From positions 1 to 64,000 of IMG/VR virus record IMGVR_UViG_3300010885_049703: a stretch of 64,000 nucleotides of DNA, one strand, 5' to 3'. A program made the position numbers and the translations under genes. The stretch is from a virus. Shown here in pieces: positions 31,686-57,980 of the stretch (within the stretch, counting starts at the first letter, position 1; every line of letters starts with the position of its first letter). The notes beneath the pieces were generated by a model, which was not told the DNA's origin, searched no databases, and saw only the letters and a program-made list of their open reading frames with translations.

Positions 31686-31991
31686 ATGGAAACTGACTTA
31701 TTATCACATAGCCGCGCCCGTTTTAATCACGAGGCAGCCCGGCGTATACTTCGTGAAAAGTACGAAGCCAAAATGCTTTTTGCCTATCGTGGCGGCATGT
31801 GGCGTGCTGGCCCGGAACTTAATAATATGATATTCACCTGTGGTCGTATGGGAGAAGTTGTATTGCCAGACTTATATGGCAATCCTGTTAAGATCAACAC
31901 ACAAGAATTAATGCCATTAAGTCAGGAACGTTGGAACGAACAGATGACAGCCTGGTTGGTGGAATTTGAAGAATTGAGCCAACTGCGATGA
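31686..31991 (+). CDS. hypothetical protein (101 aa)
   Basis: Start re-set to ATG 31686, since the longer ORF would span the terminator. ATGA-coupled to the next gene. Confidence 0.6.
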   Translation: METDLLSHSRARFNHEAARRILREKYEAKMLFAYRGGMWRAGPELNNMIFTCGRMGEVVLPDLYGNPVKINTQELMPLSQERWNEQMTAWLVEFEELSQLR

Positions 31992-32803
31992 CCACAGGTG
32001 CATTGATATTTGCATTTAACAATGCCGAAATCAATTATGTGAGCATGGCTGCATGGAATGCCGGCAATATCCAGCGGCATCTTGGAATACCAACGTCGTT
32101 GGTCACTGACTGTATTGATCCCAGCTGCAATGATGTTTACGATAAATTTGATCGCGTTATCGTAGTAGAAAAACCCCGAGCAGGTACGCGACATTTCAGC
32201 GATATTGGCACAACAGTAGATTGGTACAACACCAATCGTATGGATGCCTACTCATTGACACCATATGATCAAACCCTGGTGATTGATGCTGATTATGTTG
32301 TATGTAGCAGTGTCTTGAATGTAGCATTGACACGTGACCAGGATTTTCAGTGCTTTCAAGAAGCATTTGATATCACTGGCACCAATGACTTCAATAGCCT
32401 CAATACATTTGGTGAACACAGTTTTCCCATGTGGTGGGCCACAGTGATGATTTTTAAAAAAAGCACAGCAGCTCAATATATTTTTGACTCCATGCAGATG
32501 GTACGCGATAACTGGCAGCACTATCGCGATCTTTATAAAATACAGCGTCCCACATATCGCAATGACTTTGCCTTGAGCATTGCCTTGGGAATTTACAGTG
32601 GCCATACTTTGAAAGTAGATTCAATTCAACATCAGTTGGCCACTGTACTTCCTGAACATCGGCTACAGCAAATGTCTAAAGATGATTATCGGATCGAATA
32701 CAGCACTAGCACAGGTACCTTAAAATACATAACTTTGCGAGGAGTTAGTTTCCACGCCATGTGTAAACGAGATCTAGGAGCCATAGTTGCCAATCCTCTC
32801 TGA
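31988..32803 (+). CDS. glycosyltransferase-like protein, GT-A fold
   Basis: TPYDQTLVIDADY (DxD motif) and RNDFA. Paralogous to the next gene. Confidence 0.65.
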   Translation: MTTGALIFAFNNAEINYVSMAAWNAGNIQRHLGIPTSLVTDCIDPSCNDVYDKFDRVIVVEKPRAGTRHFSDIGTTVDWYNTNRMDAYSLTPYDQTLVIDADYVVCSSVLNVALTRDQDFQCFQEAFDITGTNDFNSLNTFGEHSFPMWWATVMIFKKSTAAQYIFDSMQMVRDNWQHYRDLYKIQRPTYRNDFALSIALGIYSGHTLKVDSIQHQLATVLPEHRLQQMSKDDYRIEYSTSTGTLKYITLRGVSFHAMCKRDLGAIVANPL

Positions 32804-33563
32804 ACGTGGGTATCTAATACCGGCGCTTGACAACGAATCTACTGACTATGTGCGCTGTGCGCAACAACTGGCACACAGCATAAGACAGTTTGAGCCTGAG
32901 GCAAAAATCGCTGTGGTGACATTACGGCGTTGTGCAGATTCAGTGTTTGATTACGTGATTCCGTTGCCGCATGGTGATTGCAGCACTGGAGATAACAAAC
33001 AGTGTAATGATTGGCAAATGTTTTCAGCATCACCGTTTCGTCAGACTATAAAACTTGAAGCTGACATGATCATTGCATCGTCGATTGATCATTGGTGGGC
33101 AATGATGCAACATCGTGATGTGTGTATTAGCACAGGGTGCAGAGACTATTATGATCAACCTGCACAATCAAGATTCTATAGAAAGTTGTTTGACACCAAC
33201 AACTTACCTGATGTCTACAATGCCATAACGTATTGGCGAGTCAGCGACACCGCCAAAGAATTCTTTAAATTAGTACGTGCAATATTTGAAAACTGGACAG
33301 AGTATCGTAAACTATTGAAATTCGCCGATGAAGAAGCCAGCACTGATGTAGTGTATGCAATGGCTGCAAAGATAGTTGGAGTAGAACAGTGCACCATGCC
33401 GTTTGCTAGTTACCCACAAATAGTTCACATGAAAAAACATATCATTAACACTCGCACTAACGACTGGACACGTGAACTGGTCTGGGAAACTGATCCCTTG
33501 CGTATTCAAACTGTGGCGCAGTGGGGAGCATTTCACTATCACATCAAGGACTGGCAACCATGA
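32787..33563 (+). CDS. glycosyltransferase-like protein, GT-A fold (paralog)
   Basis: SPFRQTIKLEADM (ExD variant), STDVVYA and IVHMK motifs align with the previous ORF. Confidence 0.6.
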   Translation: MPILSERGYLIPALDNESTDYVRCAQQLAHSIRQFEPEAKIAVVTLRRCADSVFDYVIPLPHGDCSTGDNKQCNDWQMFSASPFRQTIKLEADMIIASSIDHWWAMMQHRDVCISTGCRDYYDQPAQSRFYRKLFDTNNLPDVYNAITYWRVSDTAKEFFKLVRAIFENWTEYRKLLKFADEEASTDVVYAMAAKIVGVEQCTMPFASYPQIVHMKKHIINTRTNDWTRELVWETDPLRIQTVAQWGAFHYHIKDWQP

Positions 33564-33892
33564 CACCTGAAGAATTTTGGAATATTTTACATGCTGTGCC
33601 TGAACCGCACCCAATATTCTATAGACTGTATTACGATGATCAAGGGTCGCCCTTATTCTACAGCATGGAGGATTTACCAGGTAATTACATTGACATTGAC
33701 AAAGAAACTTATTTTCAATCCAGCAGTTATGTAAGAGTGCGTGACGGTCAATTAATTCGCACCAGCATAAACACCAGTCGCAAATTAGTGCCCAGCAGCA
33801 TTGGATTTGCGTGTGATCCCAATGACGTTGCTGTAGTCAGCGACTCTTCCTCTAACCGATGGGCAGTAAAAAACTATGATTCAGAAAATTGA
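33560..33892 (+). CDS. hypothetical protein
   Basis: ATGA-coupled start at 33560. Overlaps the next gene. Confidence 0.6.
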   Translation: MTPEEFWNILHAVPEPHPIFYRLYYDDQGSPLFYSMEDLPGNYIDIDKETYFQSSSYVRVRDGQLIRTSINTSRKLVPSSIGFACDPNDVAVVSDSSSNRWAVKNYDSEN

Positions 33893-34802
33893 TATTGCAG
33901 ACTTAGATTGTATATTTTTAACTTATGATGAACCAAATGCTGAGACAAATTGGGTGCATGTTAGGAACATGGTGCCCTGGGCACGACGAGTGGATGGCGT
34001 TAAAGGGTCAGACGCTGCCCACAAAGCGGCAGCCATGGCTTCTGTTACCGATCGGTTTGTGCTCATTGATGGTGATAACATCCCTGATATTGGCTTTTTT
34101 TCATGTACACTGGAGTTGGATGATACCAATCGCGATTGTGTATTTCGCTGGCGTGCCAGGAATAACGTTAACGGACTAATGTATGGTAACGGTGGTATAA
34201 GTTGCTGGACAAAGGATTATGTACTAAACATGCTGACACACGAAGCGTCGGATGGCTCTGATGAGACTGCTGTAGAGTTTTGTTTTCACCCCCGGTACTG
34301 GGCAATGCATGATTGTTATAGTACCACACATATCAATGCCACTGACTTTCAGGCCTGGCGTGCTGGCTTCCGCGAAGGTGTTAAGATGTGTTTGGATCGT
34401 GGTCGCCGTCCTAGCATCAGTGAATTCCAACACCGTGTGGCACAACGTAACTTGGACAACCTAACTATCTGGCACAACATTGGCCGTGATATAGAAAACG
34501 GGGAGTGGGCTATTGCAGGATCACGACAAGGCACTTACATGACAATGCTCACAGAGTGGGACTACGCCAAGGTACAAAATTTTGATGAGTTGGCAGATCT
34601 TTGGAAGTCAGTGCAATCACAAGAACCCAACACGCTTGCTGGCAGAATGGCCGAAGAGTTGCACACACAATTAAACTTACCAATGCATTATACACAAGCA
34701 GGAGAAAGTGAATTTTTCAAGCATCATTATCAAGCCAACTGGCGTAATCGTGGCACGATGGTGCAAGAAATTGATGTCATTAGACAACAAGGAGTCTGGT
34801 AA
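33876..34802 (+). CDS. glycosyltransferase-like protein, GT-A fold
   Basis: IFLTYDEPNAE..W, RVDGVKG..AAHKAAA, LIDGDN (DxD), NGLMYGNGG and AWRAGFRE motifs. Confidence 0.6.
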   Translation: MIQKIDIADLDCIFLTYDEPNAETNWVHVRNMVPWARRVDGVKGSDAAHKAAAMASVTDRFVLIDGDNIPDIGFFSCTLELDDTNRDCVFRWRARNNVNGLMYGNGGISCWTKDYVLNMLTHEASDGSDETAVEFCFHPRYWAMHDCYSTTHINATDFQAWRAGFREGVKMCLDRGRRPSISEFQHRVAQRNLDNLTIWHNIGRDIENGEWAIAGSRQGTYMTMLTEWDYAKVQNFDELADLWKSVQSQEPNTLAGRMAEELHTQLNLPMHYTQAGESEFFKHHYQANWRNRGTMVQEIDVIRQQGVW

Positions 34803-34803
34803 T

Positions 34804-35850
34804 ATGAGTTTAATTAACAGCCATTGCGGGTTTGCACCACTGCAAGAAGTCTGGCTAGGTGATGTATATCCAACACACTTTTATGATCATTTGTCTGCAC
34901 CAGTACGCGATGCATTTCATACCATTACTGAATGGACCAAGGAAGACCTAGGCAAAATACATGCTAAACTAACTGAGCTGGGCGTAATTGTACGTAGACC
35001 TGAATACCATAGCATAGACGATTGTTTAAATCATAACGACAACTTGTTGAAACCTGTGGTTGCAGCCCGAGATGACACATTAGTGTTAGGATCAACTATG
35101 TATCATCTACGTAATCAATTTCGTCAAAACCCTTGGCAACAAGCACTGGATGATTACAGGGCCAGTGGCGCCACAGTATTAGAATATCAAGAAGGTGAGC
35201 CTTGGGCATGTATAAGTCCCCCGTGCATGGTACGTATTGGCCGCGACTTATATATAGATTGGATATACCACAACCATGTTTGGGGAATAGTAACAGAACC
35301 GTTAGTAGAACTAGCTAAAAATTATCGTGTACATGTAAGTATGATTGATGGACACAGCGATTGTGTATTTTGTCCAGTGCGAGAAGGGTTGATTCTAACT
35401 ACTGATTACAAGCAGTCTTACGACAAAACATTCCCTGGATGGCAAATACACAATATCAATCACAAGAAACGTAAAGGATCTCTAAACATGAGTGGTGGGT
35501 TTCATCAATGGCATGTACCTGATGTTAAAATAGGTGCCAACAAAGAGTTCCAGCAACATGTACAAACGAAAGCACAAGATTGGATAGGTAGTTACCAGGA
35601 AACTGTATTTGATGTAAATTTGCTAATAGTTGATGACAAAAATATTCTTAGCATAGGAGACGATGACGAAACATTTGAGTTCTTACACCATCAGGGTTAT
35701 AATGTGCATGCCTTTGATTTTCGTTGTAGAAATTTTTGGGACGGCGGCATGCATTGTTTAACAAATGACATTCGTAGGACTGGCGATTGCAAGGACTATT
35801 TCCCACACCGTGGTGGCGCAGCATTGGATTGGTTAATTGATGGAAGTTGA
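34804..35850 (+). CDS. amidinotransferase (pentein superfamily)
   Basis: Start re-set to ATG 34804. INS...PLQEVWLG, ARD, GHSD and C-terminal WDGGMHCLT with the catalytic Cys. Confidence 0.8.
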   Translation: MSLINSHCGFAPLQEVWLGDVYPTHFYDHLSAPVRDAFHTITEWTKEDLGKIHAKLTELGVIVRRPEYHSIDDCLNHNDNLLKPVVAARDDTLVLGSTMYHLRNQFRQNPWQQALDDYRASGATVLEYQEGEPWACISPPCMVRIGRDLYIDWIYHNHVWGIVTEPLVELAKNYRVHVSMIDGHSDCVFCPVREGLILTTDYKQSYDKTFPGWQIHNINHKKRKGSLNMSGGFHQWHVPDVKIGANKEFQQHVQTKAQDWIGSYQETVFDVNLLIVDDKNILSIGDDDETFEFLHHQGYNVHAFDFRCRNFWDGGMHCLTNDIRRTGDCKDYFPHRGGAALDWLIDGS

Positions 35851-36808
35851 TGTAGTTACTAGCGATTCGCTGATTTGGAACAAACAACAATTTATATTTG
35901 ATCTGATTGTTGCAGCGCAATCAGGCCAAGTCGTTGTGAATTTACTGCACGAAGGCCCTGACTGCATCGCTGCAGGTATAGATTTGGTACTAGATCAAAT
36001 TTGCGAATTAATGAGTCTGCCACGGGAGCATTTTTTAATACAGACTAGCAATCAACTAAGTTCTAGCGCATATCCTGAACAAAGAACATCGTTTGTTGAG
36101 TTAGCGTTAGCAAAGACGTTGGCAACGCAGAGGTTACCACAAACAAGCACATTGCAGCATAAATTTGGTATATTCATAGGTCGTAGTAACTGGCAAAGAT
36201 TGGGACTAGCAGCATATTTGAGCTCACAGTATCCTGAGCAAACCACAATGACTTTTCACTACGATAATCAAATTGATTATCATCGCAATAATTTTGGGAT
36301 CGAAGAATTTGTACAACGTAATTGGGAACGTGCTCCACAGATACTGGAGTTTTTGAAACGTTTGCCTATTACAAACGATCATCAAACTTATCCTATTTTA
36401 TGGAACAAACAAGGATTTGATTTACAAGAGCAATATAAATCCTTGTTTGTTGAAATAGTATGCGAAACTTACTTTACTGGTCGCACATTTTTTATAACTG
36501 AAAAAACTCTACGGTGTATTGTAAATCGTAGGCCATTTTTAGTGCAAGGTCCTAGATGCTATCTAAAAAATTTGCATGCACTGGGATTTAAAACATTTGA
36601 TCAGTGGTGGGACGAAGGGTATGATTTAGATCATTCAGATGCTAGATATCAAACACTATGCAATGGTATAGATTGGATCGCACAACAATCATCAAATACA
36701 ATACAGCAATGGTATCAAGACATGCAACCAGTATTGGAACACAATATAGAATGTTTAAAACAACTAAGCACAAAAAAGATACTTACAACAGATTTTTCTT
36801 ATGAATAA
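35840..36808 (+). CDS. glycosyltransferase-like protein (GT10-like TEK motif)
   Basis: EIVCET...FITEKT.R.I...RPF.V.G...LGFKTF..WDEGYD. One of four paralogs. Confidence 0.5.
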   Translation: MEVDVVTSDSLIWNKQQFIFDLIVAAQSGQVVVNLLHEGPDCIAAGIDLVLDQICELMSLPREHFLIQTSNQLSSSAYPEQRTSFVELALAKTLATQRLPQTSTLQHKFGIFIGRSNWQRLGLAAYLSSQYPEQTTMTFHYDNQIDYHRNNFGIEEFVQRNWERAPQILEFLKRLPITNDHQTYPILWNKQGFDLQEQYKSLFVEIVCETYFTGRTFFITEKTLRCIVNRRPFLVQGPRCYLKNLHALGFKTFDQWWDEGYDLDHSDARYQTLCNGIDWIAQQSSNTIQQWYQDMQPVLEHNIECLKQLSTKKILTTDFSYE

Positions 36809-38192
36809 AGGTGATGAATTAGTAGGAACCAAAAGCAAGTTTTTAACTTCTGCTGAGCAAATGAAAGAACAACTGGGACCTGCACGTTGCTATGCCAAGT
36901 GGCAGCAGGTTAGTCTGCATTTAACTACGGGCATGACCAACAGTTGCTATCATCCACCACTGCATGAAATAGATGCCACTTTACTGGCAGATAACCCTGG
37001 TGCATTACATAACACGCCGTATAAGAAAGAACAGCGTAAGATTATGTTGCGCAATGAACGTCCGGAGGAATGTAGTTATTGCTGGACACAAGAAGACATG
37101 GGCAACTTGTCAGACCGGCATTATCGTAGTGGAGAGCCTTGGGCTGATATAGATCTAACAAACTTAACCGGAGATGAAGATGTCATACCTACCTATGTGG
37201 AAGTTAATTTTAGTAATGTTTGCAATCTCAAGTGTAGCTATTGCAGCCCACAGTATAGTTCAACGTGGGCTGACGAAACTAACCGACATGGGGCCTATCC
37301 TACTAGAGTCCCTCATAATGAGCCGAGTCATTTTAACGGGCGTCGTAAGCCTATACCTGTTCGCGAAGATAACCCTTATGTAGAAGCATTCTGGCGTTGG
37401 TGGCCGCAGTTATATCCCAGACTAAAGCATTTTCGTATGACCGGTGGTGAACCATTGCTGGATAAAAACACATACCGGGTATTTGACTATGTGTTGGCAT
37501 TGCCCAAGATGGATCTGCACCTAAACGTTACATCAAATTTCAGTGTTGATTATCATGTGTTTTCACGGTATCTTGATTACGTCAAGAGATTATGCAATAC
37601 ACAAATTGAACATTTTATGCAGTATGTCAGCGTTGACACCGGTGATTGGATGCAAGCTGAATACATTAGACATGGCCTTGATATGAATTTGATGTTGAGT
37701 CATGTCAACAATTATCTTGATGAAGTGCCCAATCGCAGCAGCCTTACATTTATCATCACACTAAACAATCTCAGTGTAACAGGACTGGATCAACTGTTAG
37801 ATTATATTTTAGAACTACGTGCTAGATACAGTAAGACTTATCAACGTGTGTGGTTTGATACACCATTGCTGAGACAACCACGCTGGCAGAGTTTACAGAT
37901 ACTTCCTGTTGCATATCAACGACGCATAGAGCAACACATAGAATTCATGCGGCAGAATCTTATGCCTGAGGGTAGTTTTGTAGGATTCAAAGATTATGAA
38001 GTACAACGTATGCAACGTGCCTTGGATTGGATGCGCGAGCCACAGGATGCTGTAGAAGTAAACACCGCACGAGCAGACTTCTATCGCTTTTTTGGCGAAC
38101 ATGATCGCCGCCGTGGTACTAACTTCGTAGAAACTTTTCCAGAGATGACGACTTTTTGGCAGGAATGTGAATCACATGCTCGGCAATCGTAA
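36801..38192 (+). CDS. radical SAM enzyme with N-terminal twitch/SPASM-like domain (1)
   Basis: CNLKCSYC, TGGEP, and N-terminal C..KW..CYHPP..CSYC cysteines. Confidence 0.9.
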   Translation: MNKGDELVGTKSKFLTSAEQMKEQLGPARCYAKWQQVSLHLTTGMTNSCYHPPLHEIDATLLADNPGALHNTPYKKEQRKIMLRNERPEECSYCWTQEDMGNLSDRHYRSGEPWADIDLTNLTGDEDVIPTYVEVNFSNVCNLKCSYCSPQYSSTWADETNRHGAYPTRVPHNEPSHFNGRRKPIPVREDNPYVEAFWRWWPQLYPRLKHFRMTGGEPLLDKNTYRVFDYVLALPKMDLHLNVTSNFSVDYHVFSRYLDYVKRLCNTQIEHFMQYVSVDTGDWMQAEYIRHGLDMNLMLSHVNNYLDEVPNRSSLTFIITLNNLSVTGLDQLLDYILELRARYSKTYQRVWFDTPLLRQPRWQSLQILPVAYQRRIEQHIEFMRQNLMPEGSFVGFKDYEVQRMQRALDWMREPQDAVEVNTARADFYRFFGEHDRRRGTNFVETFPEMTTFWQECESHARQS

Positions 38193-39333
38193 ATTAATCT
38201 TAGACACATTCTGTGAAGTCTACGACTTACTTCGGCCCTGGATGGATGGCGATTTTTATGATTTTTCTCAATTAACTATAGAGCCTGGCTCCATTTATAT
38301 GGTGGGCCGGGCACAGTTTAATTTGAATGTACAAAAAGTACGTGACATAGTTGACAGCAAACAAGCCATTGTAGTAATCAGTAATCCAGCCGAAGGCAGT
38401 GAAACACTCAAACATCATATGCAACGTGCCGGGGTTAATGAGTATGTGCAAGATGGAAGATTACTATTGTTAGGCGGTGGCGACATGGAGTCTGAGTATC
38501 AATATCTGCAATACGACTCTTTCTTACCAAAAGTTTACGACTATCCAGAAAACTTAATTGAATGTCAGCGAACCCCTGAGATCTATACTCAACTTGATAA
38601 ACCTTATAAGTTTTTATTCTTAAATGGTCGCGCTCGCCCGCATAGAAAATTTTTGATACAAAGTTTTAGTCAATTAGGAATGTTGGACCAAGCAATCTGG
38701 ACTAATCTTGATTTGCACACAGGCAGTACTCAAGAAATAACAATGATGCGCCAAGGGAAAGATCTGATTGCAGAGACCATTCCAATTAAATTACTTGATT
38801 CAAAGTATGAAGTGAGTAGATATCATCGTAATCTCACTCGGGGATCACCAGAAAAATTTGTCAAAAATTCTCTGTTTGATATTGGAACCGGACAACCTGA
38901 ATGGGGAGAAATTTATCTCAAAGCCGATCTCTATATTGATACCTATTTTAGTGTAGTCACTGAAACAATATTCACTTATCCATATAGTTTCCGAACAGAG
39001 AAAATTTGGAAACCAGTTGCAATTGGGCATCCTTGGATAGCAGTTGCCAATGCAGGATTTTATCGCGATATCAAAAATTTGGGATTCCGTACATTTGATA
39101 AACTTATTGATGAAAGTTTTGATGACATTTCTAATAATTCAGATCGACTACATCGTGTGAAAGATGTTATAATTGATCTATATAATAGTGACTTGCCTAG
39201 TTTTATGTTAGCAGCGCAGGAAATTTGCGAATACAACCAACAACATCTCCAAGACATGCGTGTCAAAATACGTGCAGAGTTTCCAGAGAGATATCGTAAA
39301 TTTATGATTGAACAGGGAATTATCAATGAATGA
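38176..39333 (+). CDS. glycosyltransferase-like protein (GT10-like TEK motif)
   Basis: FLFLNGR.RPHR and SVVTET...RTEKIWKP...HPW...LGFRTF..IDESFD motifs. Confidence 0.5.
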   Translation: MLGNRKLILDTFCEVYDLLRPWMDGDFYDFSQLTIEPGSIYMVGRAQFNLNVQKVRDIVDSKQAIVVISNPAEGSETLKHHMQRAGVNEYVQDGRLLLLGGGDMESEYQYLQYDSFLPKVYDYPENLIECQRTPEIYTQLDKPYKFLFLNGRARPHRKFLIQSFSQLGMLDQAIWTNLDLHTGSTQEITMMRQGKDLIAETIPIKLLDSKYEVSRYHRNLTRGSPEKFVKNSLFDIGTGQPEWGEIYLKADLYIDTYFSVVTETIFTYPYSFRTEKIWKPVAIGHPWIAVANAGFYRDIKNLGFRTFDKLIDESFDDISNNSDRLHRVKDVIIDLYNSDLPSFMLAAQEICEYNQQHLQDMRVKIRAEFPERYRKFMIEQGIINE

Positions 39334-45506: not shown

Positions 45507-45607
45507 TGAATTTTTTTAAAAAATGGTGGGATTGGATTCGTTTAGAAATCCGTTACCGCCGCAAACTGCGCGAACTTCGTAAAAGAGATCCGTTCATATA
45601 CAAATGA
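45506..45607 (+). CDS. 33-aa basic micropeptide ending RDPFIYK
   Basis: Not in ORF track. MNFFKKWWDWIRLEIRYRRKLRELRKRDPFIYK. TAATG-coupled upstream and ATGA-coupled to the carbamoyltransferase. Confidence 0.75.
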   Translation: MNFFKKWWDWIRLEIRYRRKLRELRKRDPFIYK

Positions 45608-50069: not shown

Positions 50070-51150
50070 CAAGCATCTCTTGCATTTCTTTCCATAATAC
50101 AGATTCAAAACTACCACTATAAAAATGATTGTAGTTGTGATTGATCACAGGTAAAATACTGTGAAACAATGTTGTTTTATCATCAGGGGTTAAACTATCA
50201 AGATGTTTCAACAGTTGTCCAATGAGTTCTATTCTCTTTTGGTCATCGGGCTCGTCGTCGTAACTTTCGTCCCAGAAATCACCAAAGGTTTGGAATCCAT
50301 AACTTCGCAAATATGCCAAGCTACCACACGTTCCTACTAATACAAACGGCATTTGTAGACAAATAGGTTTGAATACTTTTTCAGTTAGGTGTTGTCTAGC
50401 TCCTGTGGCAATAGTTTCGGTTACAAGATATAACAAACATTGACTTGACTCATTAAACAAATCTAGTTTTGAACTTTGACTTGCGGAAACTTCGCCTTCG
50501 TTTTCAAACTGTAGTGGTAATGTCTGTTGTGAAAATACAGATTGTATATCAGGGTACCACTGTAGCAGTGGTTCAACCGCATCAACAACAGATATGTTTT
50601 CGGCTGGGCAGATATCTGGACAACTAATCAGATTGTTAGTTAATTGATTTTTAAAAATATGATACAACATCAACAACCGATGATGTCGTTGCCCGGCTAC
50701 AATACGATTTGGAGCAATAAATGTGTGAGTAATTTTTCTTTGACTGGGATCAGTTACTAGATAGGTATAATTGTAACCCCGAAACCAATCCAATGCAGCC
50801 CATCCGTTATAAAAATAATAGAATTGGAGCCAATCATAGGTTTGACAAATTCTATCTACTGTGCTACTATTGTATTCGCTAGTGATAATAACACCATGTC
50901 CGGGGCATTTCAACACATTGTCTTGACTGGCAAAAATATGCTGTAACACCGGGCGCAACCGAGAGAAGTCTAACGGCTCTTGGTCAAATACGAATATATA
51001 ATTGAACTCGTTGCCCGGCGGTGCATAGTTTTTGAGATCAGCCAGCCGCGTGTGACCAGGTGGATCACAGAACCACATACGTGTTCTGGGAATGTTTCTT
51101 TTTATGAATGGCCAAAATGTATGATTGTAAATCTCGTCAATTCTAATCAT
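50041..51150 (-). CDS. glycosyltransferase-like protein (GT10-like TEK motif)
   Basis: LVTET...HLTEKVFKPI..QMPF..G..YGFQTF..FWDESYD motif. Confidence 0.5.
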   Translation of the reverse strand: MIRIDEIYNHTFWPFIKRNIPRTRMWFCDPPGHTRLADLKNYAPPGNEFNYIFVFDQEPLDFSRLRPVLQHIFASQDNVLKCPGHGVIITSEYNSSTVDRICQTYDWLQFYYFYNGWAALDWFRGYNYTYLVTDPSQRKITHTFIAPNRIVAGQRHHRLLMLYHIFKNQLTNNLISCPDICPAENISVVDAVEPLLQWYPDIQSVFSQQTLPLQFENEGEVSASQSSKLDLFNESSQCLLYLVTETIATGARQHLTEKVFKPICLQMPFVLVGTCGSLAYLRSYGFQTFGDFWDESYDDEPDDQKRIELIGQLLKHLDSLTPDDKTTLFHSILPVINHNYNHFYSGSFESVLWKEMQEMLDDLQTKLSI

Positions 51151-52819
51151 GTTTGATGTATTTTATTTTGATCGCAAGCCCAACTTATTCCCACATGAAC
51201 GTTGGGCAAAGAATTTAGAAGATGCAAAAACTCAAAGTCGTACTAGATTTTTCTGGGTAGTCAACTACTTATCGGACTATACAGACTTTGATTTTCTTTG
51301 GGAACCAACTCCCTGGGAAGCGCACCAACGACATGTTTGGCCCAGTCAATGGCAACGAGATGGTGGCACACAGTTAGTGCCCAAACAAGGATTTACGGAT
51401 ACCAATTACGATCACACTACAGTGCCAAGAAAAGCCGGCGTTGATATTGTGTATGTTGACCATGGCAACCCAGAATCTCCCACAGTTAAACTCACACAAC
51501 GTGTGAGATACGTCGACAATTACCTTGACACATTAAAACGCATTGCCGCAGCAGAAACCAATGAATGGATATGGATCACCAGCAGCATCTGCGACTACAC
51601 TGACTTTGATTTTTCATGGCATCCTGAACCTTGGCAAGCGGACATGCTGCATGTATTTGCCAGCGGTCAACAACGCTTTGGTGATACGTTTTACATGCAT
51701 GTACCCAGTGCCCGGCAACGTCTTGGTGATGTGGAATTATTAGATTGGTATGCATTGAACTTTGTTACAGATATTGTAGTACCGCGGCATCATATTCCAG
51801 TTAACTGGCATCGCAAGGACACACACATTGATGCAATAAAGCAGCACGAGTTTCGGGCACCTTTGGAAATATTCACTTGCACTAATGTTGATGTTCCGTT
51901 GCCTGAAGTTAACCTATGGCGTAGCAAGACTAAAACTATCGTATCATTAAGTGCAGGTGCATCGGCTGTGATAGTTCCGCAAGTGGCAGCACCCACAATT
52001 AAAACACAACTCTATGATTATCCTTACATAGATAAGACCTATAACAATTGTGTGGAAGATCGTTTACAAGATGTAATCTTTATCAGCAACGGCGAGCCCA
52101 TGGCCGAAGCGAATTGGAACAATCTACAAGAACTGTGTCCCAGAGCACGTCGTAGCGATGGAGTTACCGGCCGTGAAGCAGCATACAAAGCAGCAGCCGC
52201 TATGAGTGACACACCTTGGTTCTTTGCTGTGTTTGCCAAAACAGAAGTGTTACCTGAATTCAAATTTGATTTCCAACCTGATCGTATGCAACAGCCCAAG
52301 CACTATATTTTTCACAGTCGCAATCCAGTTAATGGATTAGAGTATGGTGCCATGAATATTAACTTGTACAATCGCCAACTCACCTTAGATACACGACCCG
52401 GCTTAGACTTCACATTGAGTTCGGCACATGAAGTAGTACCCATCGTAGCCAGTATCTCAAGATTCAACACTGATCCTTGGATCAGTTGGCGCAGTGCATT
52501 TAGAGAAGTGTTGAAACTAAAGCGTGAAGTTGACTTTGGTGCTGACGTAGAAATACAATATCGTCTAGACACATGGTGTACTCGTGCTGAAGGAGAAAAT
52601 GCTGAATGGGTGTTGCAAGGTGCACAGGATGCCTTGGCATATTATGCGGAAGTCAACGGGCGACTATCACAGTTACAGTTGAGCTTTGACTGGGCTTGGT
52701 TAAAACAATGGTTTGAAAGCCGGCATGGATACCAGCTATGGGCTAAAACTGATCAACAAACTCCTGAGTCACAAACCAATTTAGATATTGCTCAACTCCT
52801 AATTCAAGGGATATTGTAG
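51149..52819 (+). CDS. multi-domain glycosyltransferase-like protein with internal repeat
   Basis: Two DYTDFDFxWxPxPW...HV repeats. C-terminal domain is paralogous to 33876-34802 but has VFAKT in place of IDGDN. Confidence 0.55.
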   Translation: MFDVFYFDRKPNLFPHERWAKNLEDAKTQSRTRFFWVVNYLSDYTDFDFLWEPTPWEAHQRHVWPSQWQRDGGTQLVPKQGFTDTNYDHTTVPRKAGVDIVYVDHGNPESPTVKLTQRVRYVDNYLDTLKRIAAAETNEWIWITSSICDYTDFDFSWHPEPWQADMLHVFASGQQRFGDTFYMHVPSARQRLGDVELLDWYALNFVTDIVVPRHHIPVNWHRKDTHIDAIKQHEFRAPLEIFTCTNVDVPLPEVNLWRSKTKTIVSLSAGASAVIVPQVAAPTIKTQLYDYPYIDKTYNNCVEDRLQDVIFISNGEPMAEANWNNLQELCPRARRSDGVTGREAAYKAAAAMSDTPWFFAVFAKTEVLPEFKFDFQPDRMQQPKHYIFHSRNPVNGLEYGAMNINLYNRQLTLDTRPGLDFTLSSAHEVVPIVASISRFNTDPWISWRSAFREVLKLKREVDFGADVEIQYRLDTWCTRAEGENAEWVLQGAQDALAYYAEVNGRLSQLQLSFDWAWLKQWFESRHGYQLWAKTDQQTPESQTNLDIAQLLIQGIL

Positions 52820-53705
52820 GATTCCAGTCAGTTACAGTTTTTAGTTTGTCACTGTCAAGAGTATCTCTATTGGGATAAAATGCATCGTGTGGTTGAGTGA
52901 TAATCTCAGCCGGAAGCCTTGCTGCAATTAGTTCTGCCGCTTCGATAATCTTTCTTCCCTGTCCTCTTGTGCAATTAAAAATTTCATTGGCTGCAGCAGG
53001 GTGTACAGCCGCAGTGACAAAAGCAGCAGCAACATCAGTGACATAACTAAAGTCTAATCGATTGTCAGGACCGTTCACATGTATCCGGCCAGTCTTGATG
53101 GCACCCACAGTCATCTTACTGATCACACGTACTACCATATCACGCACACCATACAATGCACTGGGGCGTAGAATACTGTATTCTAAGCCATGCTCGTGCT
53201 GCCAAATCTTACACATACGTTCGCATTGTAGTTTATAACTTCCGTACAATGTCAATGGATTACATTCAGCAGTTTCATTGGGAATATTACCACCAAAGTC
53301 TCCATATACCATTGACGAACTGGCCAATACAAAACGTTGAACTTTAAACTCCACACATAGATCCAATGCAATGGCAGTGGCTGCAATCATGTTAGTTGTG
53401 GCATCAACTACATTCTTCTTCACCATCTTGGCATTGGGGTATGTGGCAAGATCAATCACAACATCAGGGCCAACCTCAGAAAATACTTGTCGCAATTTTT
53501 CAGAGTTGCAGACATCAACATTCCATGCTGAATGGAATCCTATAAAGGCAGTGCGTTGGTCAAGCACAGGATTATATTCCCAATCCTTATACTCGCCGTA
53601 TTGATGATGTATGTCAACAACGTTGACTTGATGACCAAGATCAATGAGCTGGCGTGCAACATTGTGTCCGATAAATCCATGTCCACCTAGTATTAATATT
53701 TTCAT
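52743..53705 (-). CDS. NAD-dependent nucleotide-sugar epimerase/dehydratase (extended SDR)
   Basis: GGHGFIG, SSSMVYG and YGSYK motifs. Confidence 0.9.
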   Translation of the reverse strand: MKILILGGHGFIGHNVARQLIDLGHQVNVVDIHHQYGEYKDWEYNPVLDQRTAFIGFHSAWNVDVCNSEKLRQVFSEVGPDVVIDLATYPNAKMVKKNVVDATTNMIAATAIALDLCVEFKVQRFVLASSSMVYGDFGGNIPNETAECNPLTLYGSYKLQCERMCKIWQHEHGLEYSILRPSALYGVRDMVVRVISKMTVGAIKTGRIHVNGPDNRLDFSYVTDVAAAFVTAAVHPAAANEIFNCTRGQGRKIIEAAELIAARLPAEIITQPHDAFYPNRDTLDSDKLKTVTDWNPTISLELGVEQYLNWFVTQEFVDQF

Positions 53706-54739
53706 TGCAATACCTTGGCTATTTGTTCTACTTCACTGTCAGTTAGTGTGTGTTGGTTAGGCACAGTGAAACTTTGTCGTGCCAATTCATCGGCTCGTGG
53801 ACAATTGGCAGTATACAGCGTTTCCCGATGAACTGGCCTTGAATAGTGTACGGCTATGTCAATCGCTTGTTGTTGAAACTGTTTGATAACGATGTCTCGT
53901 TGCAACGATTTAAAAACTAGTTTACTGTAATCGTGTGCCCTTAGATTGGTATCTAACACACACTGGTGTTGACTTTGTGCAATAAGAAATTGCGCTATCT
54001 CATGCCTTCTGCGCTGCCATTGTGTAGCCAGTTCCAACCCAACGCTAATACACGCTGCTTCAAAACTACTGATCATACTGTTCATTCCTGGTGCAATACT
54101 TGCATCGGTATTTTTCTTCTTGCCGTGTAATCGCAGCAGTTGAGCCATGGCAGCAATGTCATCATCATCAGTGAGTACGGCTCCGCCACTGCCCCAGCTA
54201 CTGATAGGTTTACTGGGTGAAAAACTAACACAGGCAACCGTGCCTTGGTTGGCACTCCAAGTTGTACCGTTGTGACTCATTAAACTTTGAGCAGCATCAC
54301 AAATCACAGGTATGCCTAGTTGATCTAATGCGGCCCAGTTGCTCATGTTGCCAAATATATCCACTGCCACCACAGCAGCGCAGTCTTTGATTTGACTTAC
54401 ATCAATACAATAATTGTCAACAACATCAACCGCAATTGGTATATGACCGGCTCTGACAATAGCATGTGCCGTGGCAGTGAATGTGTAGGTGCTTACGGCA
54501 ATTCTACTTTGTGGGGGAAGATTCAAACACCATATGGCAATGATCAGTGCATCAGTGCAACTGGCAGTTGTGACACAATGTTTTCTATGAAACGTTGTGG
54601 CTAGCCTTGTTTCTAATCGTTGTACCAGTGCTGAGTTTTGAGCTAGGCCCTGTTGATGATCTTCGTTGAGCATTGTCCAGACTTGATCACGTATCTGAGT
54701 CCAGTTGCGAGCATTTTGGAATAGTGCGATGTTACTCAT
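53702..54739 (-). CDS. DegT/DnrJ/EryC1/StrS PLP-dependent sugar aminotransferase
   Basis: SCTDAL, TFTAT, DAAQS and SFSPSKP..GSGG with the catalytic Lys. Confidence 0.9.
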   Translation of the reverse strand: MSNIALFQNARNWTQIRDQVWTMLNEDHQQGLAQNSALVQRLETRLATTFHRKHCVTTASCTDALIIAIWCLNLPPQSRIAVSTYTFTATAHAIVRAGHIPIAVDVVDNYCIDVSQIKDCAAVVAVDIFGNMSNWAALDQLGIPVICDAAQSLMSHNGTTWSANQGTVACVSFSPSKPISSWGSGGAVLTDDDDIAAMAQLLRLHGKKKNTDASIAPGMNSMISSFEAACISVGLELATQWQRRRHEIAQFLIAQSQHQCVLDTNLRAHDYSKLVFKSLQRDIVIKQFQQQAIDIAVHYSRPVHRETLYTANCPRADELARQSFTVPNQHTLTDSEVEQIAKVLQ

Positions 54740-55352
54740 AAGAATTCACTATTGTAAAACATTCAGCAAGCGTTTGCCTATTCTTCTGCGCCCAATATTG
54801 ATTGGCAGTGTAGATATACGCAATATCTGACTGGGATAGATAACTGCCGTAACATTCCAGCAATTGACGTTTGAATGTCCAATGATCAGCAATACCAACG
54901 TAATAGTTGGCAGTGCGTTGATAGTCATGGCAATAAGGCCAACTATGCATTAACCAAGTCTGACGGGCATGCTTCTTTACATAAGGCCAAGCCAGTTCAT
55001 AGGTGGCTCTGTGGTCTTGATGACTGTCTTCAGGATTGGGGATAATTGCAATGTCACATGACTCCAACAGATCGTGTAGTTGAGTCATGATTACATTATT
55101 GACTACAAGATTTGGCCTGCCGCCGGTGTGCAAGGGAGTGGGCAATACTCTAAGATCCCAGCCACTCAATTTATAACTGGCCGCAAGTTCATTGGTTACA
55201 ATGGCTGTGGTTCGGGTGGGATTGACTTCAGTGCTGGGTTGTACAGCAACCACACTGATGATTTCTGCACCCTGCTCTTGATAACGTCTGAGAGTACCGG
55301 CACAGGCAATCTCTACATCATCGGGGTGAGCACTGACAACGAGTATTTTCAT
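54732..55352 (-). CDS. PIG-L/LmbE-family N-deacetylase
   Basis: AHPDD and HQDH metal-binding motifs. Start re-set to the ATGA-coupled ATG 55352. Confidence 0.9.
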   Translation of the reverse strand: MKILVVSAHPDDVEIACAGTLRRYQEQGAEIISVVAVQPSTEVNPTRTTAIVTNELAASYKLSGWDLRVLPTPLHTGGRPNLVVNNVIMTQLHDLLESCDIAIIPNPEDSHQDHRATYELAWPYVKKHARQTWLMHSWPYCHDYQRTANYYVGIADHWTFKRQLLECYGSYLSQSDIAYIYTANQYWAQKNRQTLAECFTIVNSYE

Positions 55353-55504
55353 GACCACCTCAACAAATATAACATGTAGTCCGCCTCATTGCGAAAGTAT
55401 AGATAGCCTCGATCACGACACCAACGAATATCTTGATCACCAAATGTTTGTTCACACCATTGCATTCTTGCCCATGCTTCTGGTATCTTTGCTCGATAGG
55501 TCAT
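55349..55504 (-). CDS. 51-aa small protein of the '...LxWS' family
   Basis: Not in ORF track. MTYRAKIPEAWARMQWCEQTFGDQDIRWCRDRGYLYFRNEADYMLYLLRWS. ATGA-coupled at both ends. Confidence 0.75.
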   Translation of the reverse strand: MTYRAKIPEAWARMQWCEQTFGDQDIRWCRDRGYLYFRNEADYMLYLLRWS

Positions 55505-55734
55505 GACCATTTTAATTTAAACCACACTGCTGGTTTTTCGTCTTTAAAGTAGTAACACCAGGAACTCATTATATAATCTACCTTGGATCTATAACCTCGT
55601 TCACGTAGCCATGAATTTAAATCATCTAACGTATAAGGCTCAATGCTAGGACGCAACTCTACCTTGTATATGAATCCTTGTTCAGCTAATCTGACACTGT
55701 AAGGTCTGCTCAACGGGTTACTGTGATCTTTCAT
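55501..55734 (-). CDS. small hypothetical protein ('FKLKWS' family)
   Basis: 77 aa, ATGA-coupled at both ends. Ends YFKDEKPAVWFKLKWS. Confidence 0.7.
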   Translation of the reverse strand: MKDHSNPLSRPYSVRLAEQGFIYKVELRPSIEPYTLDDLNSWLRERGYRSKVDYIMSSWCYYFKDEKPAVWFKLKWS

Positions 55735-56690
55735 TGCCAGTGTGTGCTAGTAGTCAGCCAATTGTAATAAGATAAGAATCCTTCAGCAACATCAACTTTG
55801 GGATCATACCCAAAGTCTTGACGAGCAGCATCAATGTTCAGTGATCCACGACTGGGGAAGTCTAGATCACGATCCCCGACTTGAATAGATCCTTGCCCCA
55901 CTATGCTGACAATCATTTCAGCTGCCTGCAACAATGTCACGGAATGACTTTTTGTTATATTATACGTGCGATTCTTTGTTTGGTCAATCAAACTGGCATT
56001 AGCGATACCTTCGGCGGCATCATCAACATAGGTAAAGTCCAAAGTTTCCGCGGCACCATTTACGTTTAACCAGCCGCCACGCAATGCCTGCATCATGAAT
56101 CGTGATATAACACGGTCTTCAACATCCAACGGTCCATATACCGCACTGGGACGAATGATGGTGTAATCAAAACAGCCGCGTCGCTGGTAATCTTTTACTA
56201 GAGCCTCGCCGGCAAGTTTCATTATACCATATTGTCCTTGTGGGCGACATATAGCATCTTCACGCACATCATCTCGGAAATCACCGTAGACCATTGAGCT
56301 TGATATGTACACAAAACGTTTGACACTGTGTGCATTCGCGCTTTCCAGCATGTTGATCAGTCCTTCAATCATCACCTTTGCTCCCAATCCAGGATTGGCA
56401 TTTACTACTTTTTGTCGGGGAAAGCTGGCCATGTGTATTACAACATCAGGCTGTTCGCCCGCAATGATGCTGTTGACTGCAGCCGCATCTGCAATGTCGT
56501 TGGTATAGCAACGTACTGATAGTGGAAATTTTACTCGACGCTGTTGTATCAAGTAGTCAAGTTCTTGTTGTGGGATGACACCATAGTTGGTGAGATTGTC
56601 AATAACTGCTACATCGTGCCCAAGGCGTGTTAGATGAAGCACGGTATTGTGCCCAATTAATCCAAGCCCACCTGTGATCAATACTTTCAT
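55731..56690 (-). CDS. NAD-dependent nucleotide-sugar epimerase/dehydratase (extended SDR)
   Basis: GGLGLIG, SSSMVYG and YGIMK motifs. Paralog of 52743-53705. Start re-set to 56690. Confidence 0.9.
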   Translation of the reverse strand: MKVLITGGLGLIGHNTVLHLTRLGHDVAVIDNLTNYGVIPQQELDYLIQQRRVKFPLSVRCYTNDIADAAAVNSIIAGEQPDVVIHMASFPRQKVVNANPGLGAKVMIEGLINMLESANAHSVKRFVYISSSMVYGDFRDDVREDAICRPQGQYGIMKLAGEALVKDYQRRGCFDYTIIRPSAVYGPLDVEDRVISRFMMQALRGGWLNVNGAAETLDFTYVDDAAEGIANASLIDQTKNRTYNITKSHSVTLLQAAEMIVSIVGQGSIQVGDRDLDFPSRGSLNIDAARQDFGYDPKVDVAEGFLSYYNWLTTSTHWQ

Positions 56691-57013
56691 TGCGACCACT
56701 TTAATTTAAAGAATGTATAGTTTTGTTCACTCATCTCGCCTTCCAAGGCAATTTTGTATCCAAGTGATATTGGATCAGCCAAAGTATGAAAGTAGATGTC
56801 GCCTTCGCAGTGTTCCGTACACCACTGACCTTTTTCCGTCTGTTGCCATTCTTGAATTGTGAATGATGCATAAAGCATGGGATCTTCAACATCACCGACT
56901 GTAAAATTATGCAACATAACTTTTTGTGTCTGCATGTATGACCTGGGATTGTTATGAAATTTAAATCGTTCCGGAAGCTGGCCAGGCCAAGTTTTACTAA
57001 AAGTGATTGCCAT
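56687..57013 (-). CDS. small hypothetical protein ('FKLKWS' family)
   Basis: 108 aa overlapping the thyX stop and the epimerase start. Ends TFFKLKWSQ. Confidence 0.65.
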   Translation of the reverse strand: MAITFSKTWPGQLPERFKFHNNPRSYMQTQKVMLHNFTVGDVEDPMLYASFTIQEWQQTEKGQWCTEHCEGDIYFHTLADPISLGYKIALEGEMSEQNYTFFKLKWSQ

Positions 57014-57674
57014 TAACTAACTCCGCAGCCATTGGAAATATTTTTGCAATTACATTGGCGCAGGCCACAGCAACTTCTTGATGTTCTTTTTGTGTGCCGT
57101 TGCCACTGCGCAGTTCAATAAAATGTATCCAACTACGCAAAGTGCCATTCATGTACAGTCGACTTTCCATGATACCTTCGGGCAACACTGCACGAGCTTG
57201 TTCTTTGGCAATGCCATTGTCAACTGCCCACTTATACGCTTCGCGACTGGCAGCTATCACATTCATTTGACGAATCTTCCATTCGTGTTCAAGTTCTTGG
57301 TCATCAGTTTCAATGCTGTTTTGACGATTCTTGGTATCTTGCAGTCGTGCATCACGCAACACAAAGTTTAGATCCTTTGTGGGATCGGCGTAACGTTGCG
57401 AGAACTCTTGGAAACTAAAACTACGATGACGTAAGATCTGTCGAGCAATGTCTCTTGTAGTGGTAATTTCTATACAAGCACTGACCATCTCAAGTGGACT
57501 CCAGTGTTGGTGCTTGATCAAATAGCGTATGAGTTTTTCGCTTGACTCAGTGTTGAGTTGATTACTGGGGTTACTGACACGAGCGCAATAGGCAATAAGT
57601 TCTTGAGCATCACCTATACCTAGCCCAGTTAGTTCAGCCGTGGGCTCGCTAGAAGAAATCAGTCTGACGTTCAT
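56997..57674 (-). CDS. thyX: FAD-dependent thymidylate synthase
   Basis: ThyX signature RHRSFSFQEFSQRY, plus HWSPLE and KEQARAVLP. Confidence 0.95.
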   Translation of the reverse strand: MNVRLISSSEPTAELTGLGIGDAQELIAYCARVSNPSNQLNTESSEKLIRYLIKHQHWSPLEMVSACIEITTTRDIARQILRHRSFSFQEFSQRYADPTKDLNFVLRDARLQDTKNRQNSIETDDQELEHEWKIRQMNVIAASREAYKWAVDNGIAKEQARAVLPEGIMESRLYMNGTLRSWIHFIELRSGNGTQKEHQEVAVACANVIAKIFPMAAELVNGNHF

Positions 57675-57980
57675 TTATAGGCCGCTTAAAATTTTGTTGG
57701 TTTCGGGTTGCACCAGCTCGGCCACAGCATTGACGTCAAGCACAAATTCAATATCTTGTACTTCGTCGCCAAGCTCGGCTAGTTGGCGGGTTATGAGAAT
57801 TTCAATTTCTTCTAACTCAAGGCCTTGTTTCTTCAGCGTGTGAAAGTTAATAGTTTTCTGACGCCGGCCTTCTATTTTGATTATAACTTTTTTGATACAT
57901 TCAAGGGGAACAGCAGTTTTTTCATCAATACCTGAAATTATGTGTTCCCACTTCTCGAGAAAATCATCACTGAGCTTCAT
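57675..57980 (-). CDS. hypothetical protein
   Basis: Start re-set to ATG 57980 (MKLSDDF...). Abuts thyX. Confidence 0.6.
   Translation of the reverse strand: MKLSDDFLEKWEHIISGIDEKTAVPLECIKKVIIKIEGRRQKTINFHTLKKQGLELEEIEILITRQLAELGDEVQDIEFVLDVNAVAELVQPETNKILSGL

Follow-up and report, generated by a model that had tools for sequence, protein, structure and literature searches.

A conserved glycosyltransferase-like and radical SAM gene block behind the fibre genes of uncultured jumbo myoviruses

What does a bacterial virus build with a dense array of glycosyltransferase-like (GT-like), radical S-adenosylmethionine (SAM) and sugar-tailoring enzymes placed directly behind its fibre genes? We addressed this question for one such block in the first 64 kb (the window, 64,000 nucleotides) of IMGVR_UViG_3300010885_049703, a 114,259-bp IMG/VR virus contig rated ~33% complete. 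A reading made from the sequence alone (the sequence-only reading) had assigned positions 31686-57674 to a pathway for a heavily modified amino-sugar glycan with aminoglycoside-like chemistry. We found that a large clade of jumbo myoviruses, uncultured and ~320-365 kb in size, has this block as part of its core. Our tentative best account is a cytoplasmic kit for assembling a glycoconjugate, and for tailoring it, on an acceptor made by the phage itself, most probably one of the virion proteins. In this abundant clade of giant phages ~7% of the genome goes into such chemistry, and homologs of its enzymes number in the thousands in metagenomes. The product, once found, would provide a first function for the radical SAM family NF033640, for a GT-B family of >3,800 members and for a repeat-bearing family of ~1,400 clusters. 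It would also show whether bacterial viruses build complex cationic glycans of their own, as giant eukaryotic viruses do, and would settle what the GT/radical SAM cassettes beside the tail fibres of aquatic phages are for, be it host recognition, virion protection, superinfection exclusion or something new.

Conservation and limits of the block

A pattern scan of viral contigs based on the profile of the block's amidinotransferases gave at least 213 IMG/VR contigs, and the best 80 of these 213 (77-84% identical) were fetched. Co-occurrence was counted within 10 kb of the core amidinotransferase, and copies farther off would escape this count. The core genes were found within this distance in 60-80 of the 80 loci, in the same order and orientation, which bears out the expectation that they co-occur across related phages. 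Across the 80 loci, identity was ~80% for the core amidinotransferase, 68% for the carbamoyltransferase, 64% (median) for the core short-chain dehydrogenase/reductase (SDR), 55-69% for the four core radical SAM enzymes (medians of 66% for 39308-40663 in 62 loci and 69% for 43106-44449 in 70 loci), 45-51% for the two core GT-B proteins, 49% for 51149-52819 and 39% for 44424-45506. The FkbM methyltransferase lies near the core in 28 of the 80 loci and the PIG-L deacetylase in 5, so that both look accessory. The window's trio of SDR, DegT aminotransferase and PIG-L genes is closely matched in a single relative, G001.

Four relatives (G001-G004) are 92-100% complete at 320-364 kb, and one of them, with direct terminal repeats, is rated 100% complete. 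Their wedge proteins are 67-73% identical to that of the window; the enzymes of the block, with 45-80% for the core genes, are thus as conserved as the baseplate. In all four the block keeps its position behind the wedge gene, a giant fibre-like protein and fibre-like genes. G001 is collinear with the window through the wedge, the giant protein and the fibre-like genes, after which follows the less conserved left part of the block. The same gene order in the terminally repeated, complete relative excludes a chimera with a bacterial locus. Four contigs of 148-183 kb that were binned into bacterial metagenome-assembled genomes (MAGs), namely L083, L084 (NZ_JBBAKG01, from a 'Haliscomenobacter sp.' MAG), L085 and L158, carry the island together with the accessory left part. 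These are probably phage contigs, and their binning is either an artefact or a clue to the host.

Virion genes fill 772-31614 and encode baseplate hub and wedge proteins (matching phrog_13211, phrog_43 and phrog_10646 at E 1e-284), a giant protein and fibre-like proteins. The wedge protein shares 34-36% identity with its counterparts in Rak2-like jumbo phages (Serratia BF, Erwinia SNUABM phages, PBECO4), which makes the virus a distant member of the Rak2-like jumbo myoviruses. After the wedge gene, a single open reading frame (ORF) of 4,745 residues (14172-28409) matches FG-GAP repeats and is 36-49% identical to its counterpart in G001. It is probably a giant fibre or baseplate-associated protein, comparable to ORF361 of the cultured phage RsoM2USA.

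On the left, the last fibre-like gene is followed by a terminator-like hairpin at 31634-31653 (+) and a promoter-like TTTACT-17-TATAAT (to 31679), both of them pattern matches of a kind whose total does not exceed shuffled expectation. The true start of the first gene of the block, 31686, lies 3' of both sites. Because these sites separate the two gene groups, co-transcription of the block with the fibre genes is uncertain. On the right, the small ORF 56687-57013, which overlaps the end of the block, and ThyX at 56997-57674 (-; Pfam E 3e-45) do not belong to the glycan genes, which sets the end of the block at 56699. The sequence-only reading had set the right limit too far out; its ORF positions were as placed. 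It had also called the locus almost gapless, a description that holds apart from a largest gap of 372 nt (55359-55730). This gap is the sole sizeable non-coding stretch of the block. In most relatives another DegT gene adjoins the core SDR and replaces the window's SDR-DegT-PIG-L trio, which suggests cassette exchange near 55359-55730. The genes of the block, and a related gene outside it, are as follows.

31686-31991 (+): small protein, first gene of the block; no family match; 53% identity in G001
31988-32803 (+): GT8-like (GT-A, DxD = DAD) glycosyltransferase candidate, by profile and hhalign
32787-33563 (+): paralog of the GT8-like candidate 31988-32803 (BLASTP E 5e-8); phrog_1903 (function unknown)
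33521-33892 (+): 123-aa protein; 55% identity in G001
33876-34802 (+): 308-aa protein, DGD motif present; paralogous to the 51149-52819 C-terminal domain; no PDB or Pfam match
34801-35850 (+): amidinotransferase paralog, accessory, by profile
35837-36808 (+): member of the unannotated GT-B family, accessory, by alignment and E-T...T-E-K motif
36801-38192 (+): N_Twi radical SAM enzyme; NF033640, 305 bits
38167-39333 (+): member of the unannotated GT-B family, by alignment
39308-40663 (+): N_Twi radical SAM enzyme, core; NF033640, 288 bits
40650-41951 (+): N_Twi radical SAM enzyme, core, with N-terminal SPASM/twitch; NF033640, 399 bits
41932-43161 (+): N_Twi radical SAM enzyme, core; NF033640, 338 bits
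43106-44449 (+): N_Twi radical SAM enzyme, core; NF033640, 282 bits
44424-45506 (+): core 360-aa protein; cyclophilin-like barrel with an inserted helical bundle in the model
45506-45607 (+): 33-residue basic peptide, conserved ORF
45604-47085 (+): carbamoyltransferase of the NodU/CmcH/TobZ family, by Pfam and phrog_1601
47085-47864 (+): FkbM methyltransferase, accessory, by Pfam
47855-48895 (-): core amidinotransferase, by profile; most conserved gene of the block
48879-50117 (-): GT-B glycosyltransferase candidate, core, by family alignment
50041-51150 (-): GT-B glycosyltransferase candidate, core, by AlphaFold model
51149-52819 (+): core protein with N-terminal repeat modules and a 250-aa C-terminal domain
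52743-53705 (-): extended SDR, epimerase-like, accessory (shared with G001), by Pfam/NCBIfam
53702-54739 (-): DegT/PseC-type sugar aminotransferase, by Pfam/NCBIfam
54732-55358 (-): PIG-L/LmbE-type de-N-acetylase, accessory, by Pfam; HPDD motif
55731-56699 (-): extended SDR, core, by Pfam/NCBIfam; median 64% identity
60572-61459 (+): third amidinotransferase paralog, outside the block, by profile

Enzyme families and a conserved 33-residue peptide

About six of the roughly eight GT-like proteins proposed earlier stood up (four GT-B and, less firmly, two GT8-like); 33876-34802 and 51149-52819 did not. The four GT-B proteins, 35837-36808, 38167-39333, 48879-50117 (-) and 50041-51150 (-), are paralogs with an invariant E-T...T-E-K motif. 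Their family counts >3,800 relatives in databases, all of which are unnamed and lack a Pfam domain. It had no Pfam, NCBIfam or PHROGs match, and a profile search of the PDB gave chance matches only. The AlphaFold model of 50041-51150 (predicted local distance difference test score, pLDDT, 89; predicted template modelling score, pTM, 0.88) was matched by Foldseek to WaaG, T4 beta-glucosyltransferase (E 3e-4) and, more weakly, OtsA, with probability 0.99-1.0. In an exhaustive VIA search, nearly all of the top 50 matches were GT-B transferases at Z 7-10.8 over 230-290 residues, among them T4 beta-glucosyltransferase (Z 10.8), Helicobacter pylori alpha-1,3-fucosyltransferase (Z 9.8) and T4 alpha-glucosyltransferase (Z 9.6). 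The modelled protein is of GT-B fold with two Rossmann-like domains, confirming a GT fold for the one GT-like ORF whose model was tested. The E...TEK motif presumably resembles that of GT10 enzymes; in a test of this affinity, fucosyltransferase structures scored Z 8-9.8, tied with other GT-B enzymes.

The second group, 31988-32803 and 32787-33563, is GT8-like with moderate support from profile comparisons. Its profile reaches glycogenin with E 0.002 over 100 residues that include DxD, and hhalign against the GT8 proteins of Vibrio phage K566 gave a probability of 73%; the window's own two proteins had no Pfam match. Finally, 33876-34802 and the C-terminal half of 51149-52819 are paralogs (E 9e-16) for which no fold or family was found in Pfam, NCBIfam, PHROGs or the PDB. 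The C-domain profile of 51149-52819 gave only chance matches in the PDB, and the domain has no DxD. We do not name the family a glycosyltransferase, because hhalign of the C-domain against the GT8-like profile gave a probability of 0.3%. The ESM Atlas returned weak GT2/GT92 leads for 51149-52819 (scores 0.83-0.85). Its orthologs measure 533-1456 aa and fall into 1,396 representative clusters, and fusion with a radical SAM domain occurs in one distant relative. The orthologs vary in the number of repeat modules between conserved N-terminal modules and the constant C-terminal domain. Long ones (L040, L078, L057) hold 65-residue units with the motif D-W-S-W-x-P-D-P...PPYIYVFGNQ...KYMD.

All five proteins of 36801-44449 that had been read as twitch-type radical SAM enzymes score 282-399 bits against NF033640 (N_Twi_rSAM), for which the curated cut-off is 170 bits. 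CxxxCxxC (C148/C152/C155) and C34, C53, C94 and C97 are invariant among them. Pfam's SPASM model matches residues 34-98 of 40650-41951 and residues 9-77 of another copy, ahead of the radical SAM core. The five proteins thus share with NF033640 an auxiliary-cluster domain N-terminal to CxxxCxxC; what sets the block apart from other NF033640 members is its conserved array of four or five genes. For 40650-41951 there are >7,400 homologs. The nearest enzymes in the PDB are SkfB, viperin, YydG, MoaA, BlsE and BtrN, all of them weak matches (E 3e-5 to 0.5). BtrN was matched at E 0.19-0.48, which gives no clear kinship with the BtrN/NeoN type that the sequence-only reading had brought in for comparison; all five belong to a different named family, N_Twi_rSAM. 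A literature search found no characterised NF033640 member. The near-complete relatives G001-G004 carry 9, 10, 10 and 17 N_Twi_rSAM genes above the cut-off, both in the array and scattered round the genome, which is an unusually large number for one radical SAM family in a virus. Among bacteria, N_Twi_rSAM genes are found chiefly in Bdellovibrionota, Flavobacteriales, Polyangiaceae and Paenibacillus.

The three amidinotransferases read earlier at 34801-35850 (+), 47855-48895 (-) and 60572-61459 (+) were confirmed with a profile built from the paralogs. It matches human AGAT (E 1e-22), StrB1 (9e-19), SxtG and HsvA, in a range of 1e-22 to 1e-13. The match to AGAT and StrB1 covers two stretches (profile positions 6-193 and 258-321). 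Columns GH.D and GG.HC are invariant in the three paralogs and align with AGAT motifs; we take them to hold the catalytic His and the C-terminal nucleophilic Cys, by the residue roles in AGAT. These proteins are only ~25% identical to AGAT, StrB1, SxtG and HsvA, and Pfam's own model does not detect them. Each near-complete relative has 3-5 amidinotransferase-like loci.

The O-carbamoyltransferase proposed at 45604-47085 was likewise supported, by Carbam_trans_N (E 1e-36, 127 bits) and Carbam_trans_C (E 1e-46, 159 bits), with gathering cut-offs of 24 and 27 bits, by phrog_1601 (E 9e-89) and by an HHxxH metal motif. The NodU equivalog NF041651 gave 128 bits and its cut-off of 1000 was not reached; a weak match to HypF was also seen. 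By these sequence matches, the protein is a member of the carbamoyltransferase superfamily and no NodU ortholog. It differs from NodU, NolO, CmcH and TobZ in being coupled to a 33-residue peptide, a feature that we have not seen described for the family. FkbM, DegT, PIG-L and two SDRs were recovered with Pfam and NCBIfam. Both SDRs read SSSMVYG...YxxxK. We take SSSMVYG to be an epimerase-type motif that differs from the TDEVYG of 4,6-dehydratases, and the scheme of SDR oxidation followed by transamination is for this reason not evident.

The earlier gene list was accurate for these enzymes and had overlooked a conserved gene of 33 codons at 45506-45607. It overlaps both neighbours, with its start on the stop of 44424-45506 and its stop on the start of the carbamoyltransferase gene. 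The peptide is present in 74 fetched loci, and its last 21 residues, ending in RKRDPFIYK, are near-invariant. Nucleotide diversity over codons 13-33 is 0.14/0.04/0.38 at positions 1/2/3, the pattern of a translated gene under strong purifying selection. A search with the back-translated peptide motif found it in at least 120 viral contigs. A 44424-type gene lies upstream of the peptide in 27 of 81 loci, and the carbamoyltransferase gene directly downstream in 54 of the 77 loci with enough flank. Neither the peptide nor 44424-45506 had a Pfam, NCBIfam or PHROGs match. The AlphaFold model of 44424-45506 (pLDDT 84) gave middling VIA scores (Z 8-9.6) to cyclophilin-fold proteins, Foldseek found no match and the ESM Atlas gave no usable lead.

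Parallels in other viruses and candidate products

The whole block was not found in any cultured phage, a megablast search with the locus in 50,697 phage records gave no match, and a literature search for this enzyme combination in phages found nothing. Parts of the kit do occur. RsoM2USA (MG752970, 343.8 kb) has a first cluster with a 39308-type radical SAM enzyme (RsoM2USA_202, 48% identity) and a carbamoyltransferase (RsoM2USA_199, 47%). A second cluster (ORFs 348-358) holds an SDR, homologs of 31988-32803 (E 4e-35), of 32787-33563 (E 1e-26) and of the 51149-52819 C-domain, a 33876-like protein (39% identity) and, beside the tail sheath gene, a 36801-like protein (37%). This cluster lies among the genes of three proteins that proteomics identified in virions, namely ORF356 (structural), ORF359 (tail sheath) and ORF361 (giant, structural) (PMC8504454). 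In contrast to the block, the kit homologs of RsoM2USA are split into two clusters, and all are annotated as hypothetical. In the fetched regions of RsoM2USA, BLAST showed neither an amidinotransferase nor a GT-B family member nor the 33-residue peptide, and an amidinotransferase search of the phage collection returned neither RsoM2USA nor K566. Three DUF6071 proteins around the radical SAM gene of the first RsoM2USA cluster (125998-129043) carry G-C-S-M-T-x-G, G-G-S-S-N and D-H-P motifs and, judged by these, look like SGNH-type esterases or acyltransferases.

Vibrio phage K566 (OZ196521) has two GT8 genes, both Pfam-positive, and a GT4-like gene interspersed among four N_Twi-like radical SAM genes, and of all these only the radical SAM genes are named in its annotation; the link between radical SAM enzymes and glycosyltransferases thus recurs in an independent lineage. 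Since RsoM2USA and K566 carry parts of the kit, the question is open to bench work. In cyanophage S-SCSM2R an amidinotransferase gene adjoins KdsA, KdsB and GT genes, and Nol-like carbamoyltransferases are common in cyanophages and pelagiphages, being a standard cyanophage auxiliary gene (phrog_1601).

The 'host recognition cluster' or hyperplastic region of pelagimyophages and cyanomyophages is an island next to the tail fibres that is rich in glycosyltransferases, notably GT8, and contains radical SAM cassettes; it has been read, without tests, as serving modification of the host O-chain (PMC7029224). The block resembles it in having GT and radical SAM genes inside the structural module by the tail fibres. 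It differs in that the cluster is hypervariable and non-syntenic in T4-like phages of ~150-250 kb, whereas the core of the block is syntenic and 45-80% identical in a jumbo clade. Amidinotransferases, the new GT-B family, the repeat-bearing family, the peptide and the N_Twi_rSAM expansion go beyond that cluster. Given this cluster and the cyanophage Nol-like carbamoyltransferases, the earlier statement that no phage pathway of this kind is characterised was too strong. Giant viruses encode a glycosylation machinery of their own and glycosylate virus particles in the cytoplasm (PMC9614988). The block shares with such viral machineries its soluble virus-encoded GTs and sugar-tailoring enzymes, and it would likewise act in the cytoplasm on a viral target. 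Virion glycosylation has reportedly been found in mycobacteriophages as well.

Several negative results constrain what the block can do. None of 35 locus proteins checked has a typical 19-residue hydrophobic segment that could be a membrane helix, and general Pfam scans of the locus revealed no initiating phosphoglycosyltransferase, flippase, polymerase, ligase or exporter, which argues that the pathway works in the cytoplasm. NTP_transferase is absent from the four 92-100% complete relatives (control positive in 14 of 14 genomes). Since these relatives have no sugar nucleotidyltransferase, the pathway would start from host nucleoside diphosphate (NDP)-sugars. ThyA-type PF00303 is absent from the window's contig and from the same four relatives (control positive in 10 genomes), so that the usual source of a hydroxylated pyrimidine for DNA glycosylation is lacking. 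A Tet/JBP search was empty, and its control also matched nowhere.

We favour, tentatively, the cytoplasmic kit acting on a phage-made acceptor because the enzymes are soluble, include several transferase families and are as conserved as structural genes, and because the block has a fixed place behind the fibre genes, with the link to structural genes recurring in RsoM2USA. The soluble transferases (four GT-B, two GT8-like and perhaps the 33876/51149 family) would take sugars from host NDP-sugars and build the glycan directly on the acceptor, in the likeliest case a fibre or decoration protein of the virion; neither a lipid carrier nor a flippase nor a polymerase would take part. The N_Twi radical SAM enzymes may edit the glycan or its precursors by C-H chemistry (epimerisation, oxidation or deoxygenation). 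Further edits would comprise the formation of free amines by de-N-acetylation or transamination, amidination with arginine as donor, carbamoylation and methylation. Enzyme families, solubility, conservation and synteny by the fibre genes are what we observed, and from there we infer every substrate, the order of the steps and the target. Virion glycosylation is plausible, and the Ser/Thr-linker argument for it is weak: instead of the many Ser/Thr-rich virion linkers described earlier, 11 structural proteins hold only two short S/T-rich 15-mers, and the last fibre-like protein (30643-31614) has 29% Ser+Thr.

Several findings weigh against this proposal. Such linkers are scarce, and the terminator-like and promoter-like sites between the block and the fibre genes make co-expression with late genes uncertain. 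The first RsoM2USA cluster, set among the three DUF6071 proteins, has a DNA ligase and a helicase for neighbours and no tail genes. Peptide-modifying (SkfB, YydG) and nucleotide-modifying (viperin) enzymes are among the nearest PDB matches of the radical SAM proteins, if at weak E-values. The bacterial N_Twi_rSAM genes often neighbour more radical SAM/SPASM genes and are otherwise in heterogeneous, not clearly sugar-related surroundings, a heterogeneity that leaves the substrate of the family undecided. Finally, the invariant peptide has no role in a pure glycan model.

This last point leads to a pathway centred on the peptide, akin to ribosomally synthesised and post-translationally modified peptides, which we consider unlikely and yet the main rival. 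The 33-residue peptide would be the scaffold or primer of a glycopeptide. N_Twi radical SAM enzymes, the carbamoyltransferase and perhaps the amidinotransferase (on Lys) would rewrite its C-terminal tail, which the cyclophilin-like 44424-45506 may hold at Asp-Pro-Phe, and the GT-B and GT8-like enzymes would then add a glycan, giving a product displayed on the virion or released. If true, this would be a phage-made, glycosylated and radical SAM-matured peptide, a class of viral product undescribed so far. In favour of this pathway, the peptide is a genuine gene product subject to strong purifying selection, the overlapping codons point to translational coupling between 44424-45506 and the carbamoyltransferase, and the latter is the immediate neighbour in 54 of 77 wider loci. 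SPASM/twitch radical SAM enzymes often mature peptides, as the best PDB matches SkfB and YydG illustrate, and the 51149-52819 domain has a relative in fusion with a radical SAM domain. The carbamoyltransferase superfamily also includes HypF, which carbamoylates HypE at the C-terminal Cys and to which 45604-47085 has a weak match. GT8 enzymes of the glycogenin type start a glycan on a Tyr residue; two Tyr residues of the peptide are conserved, and the profile of 31988-32803 and 32787-33563 is GT8-like. Other features tell against a peptide product: the overlap of its start and stop codons with the neighbouring genes points to a subunit in equimolar amount and not to a substrate in excess, the invariant part is the C-terminus with no variable core, and the peptide lacks Cys, Ser and Thr. 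Moreover, RsoM2USA, K566 and the bacterial N_Twi_rSAM loci hold the enzymes without a detectable copy of the peptide, and at least eight transferases would be many for one peptide.

The remaining alternatives are each weakened by the tests made here. Remodelling of the host surface, in which a lipopolysaccharide, capsule or S-layer glycan is altered to block superinfection, appears quite unlikely. It would fit the O-chain modification argued for GT8-rich islands and radical SAM cassettes by tail fibres (PMC7029224), the S-SCSM2R amidinotransferase gene next to 3-deoxy-D-manno-octulosonic acid (Kdo) genes, and the classing of Nol-like carbamoyltransferases as auxiliary metabolic genes. The block, however, has no membrane protein, initiating phosphoglycosyltransferase, flippase, polymerase or ligase; its core is conserved whereas surface-antigen loci are hypervariable; and ~80% identity of the amidinotransferase across the clade argues for a fixed substrate on the phage side. 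DNA hypermodification, with the GT-B enzymes glycosylating a modified base in the manner of the T4 alpha- and beta-glucosyltransferases or of the newer 5hmC/5hoC glycan systems, and the other enzymes tailoring the DNA-bound sugar, is very unlikely. Glycan hypermodification of phage DNA is known and begins with a ThyA homolog or with a methyltransferase and TET (10.1101/2023.12.21.572611; PMC13326640); amidinotransferases, carbamoyltransferases and radical SAM arrays are mentioned neither in the abstracts of these two papers nor in the preprint as searched by term. Such clusters can lie among structural genes (10.1101/2023.12.21.572611). ThyX is a conserved neighbour of the block, and the radical SAM/carbamoyltransferase pair of RsoM2USA adjoins the ligase and helicase. 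The T4 beta- and alpha-glucosyltransferases are at Z 10.8, the best match of the GT-B model, and 9.6, but GT10 fucosyltransferases and many GT-B enzymes come within ~1 Z unit of the former. The four near-complete relatives have no ThyA-type hydroxymethylase or 5hoC synthase (control positive in 10 genomes), the Tet/JBP search was empty, though its control matched nowhere, and ThyX keeps its ordinary RHRxxS motif.

A free small molecule, secreted or intracellular, such as an aminoglycoside-like or guanidino/carbamoyl pseudo-oligosaccharide directed against the host or competitors, is given just as little probability. Amidinotransferases, carbamoyltransferases, DegT, PIG-L and radical SAM enzymes co-occur in aminoglycoside clusters as they do in the block, and the amidinotransferase profile matches StrB1 and SxtG. 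Against this, Pfam scans of the locus showed no cyclitol synthase, polyketide synthase-like starter enzyme, transporter, exporter or resistance gene, the radical SAM enzymes show no clear likeness to BtrN, and the place of the block within the structural module is conserved. In particular, no cyclitol-forming family was among the Pfam hits of ORFs 31572-61459, the locus to which this search was confined. What the sequence-only reading called aminoglycoside-like pathway logic is, in this light, an analogy only, and membership in a saxitoxin- or aminoglycoside-type cluster was rejected for want of a starter enzyme in these scans.

Neighbouring genes

No small protein with a Cys-His-x-Ser tail was found in the whole contig. 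To the right of the block, ThyX (~75% identity) and the small genes 56687-57013, 57675-58058, 57967-58698 and 58700-58942 are conserved neighbours in most relatives. ThyX and these four genes are the next module, outside the sugar kit. The third amidinotransferase is flanked by a DUF2201 metallopeptidase/VWA protein (59005-60285, -) and a MoxR-like AAA ATPase (61456-62544, -), and a gene for S-adenosylhomocysteine hydrolase (63314-64000) runs past the end of the window.

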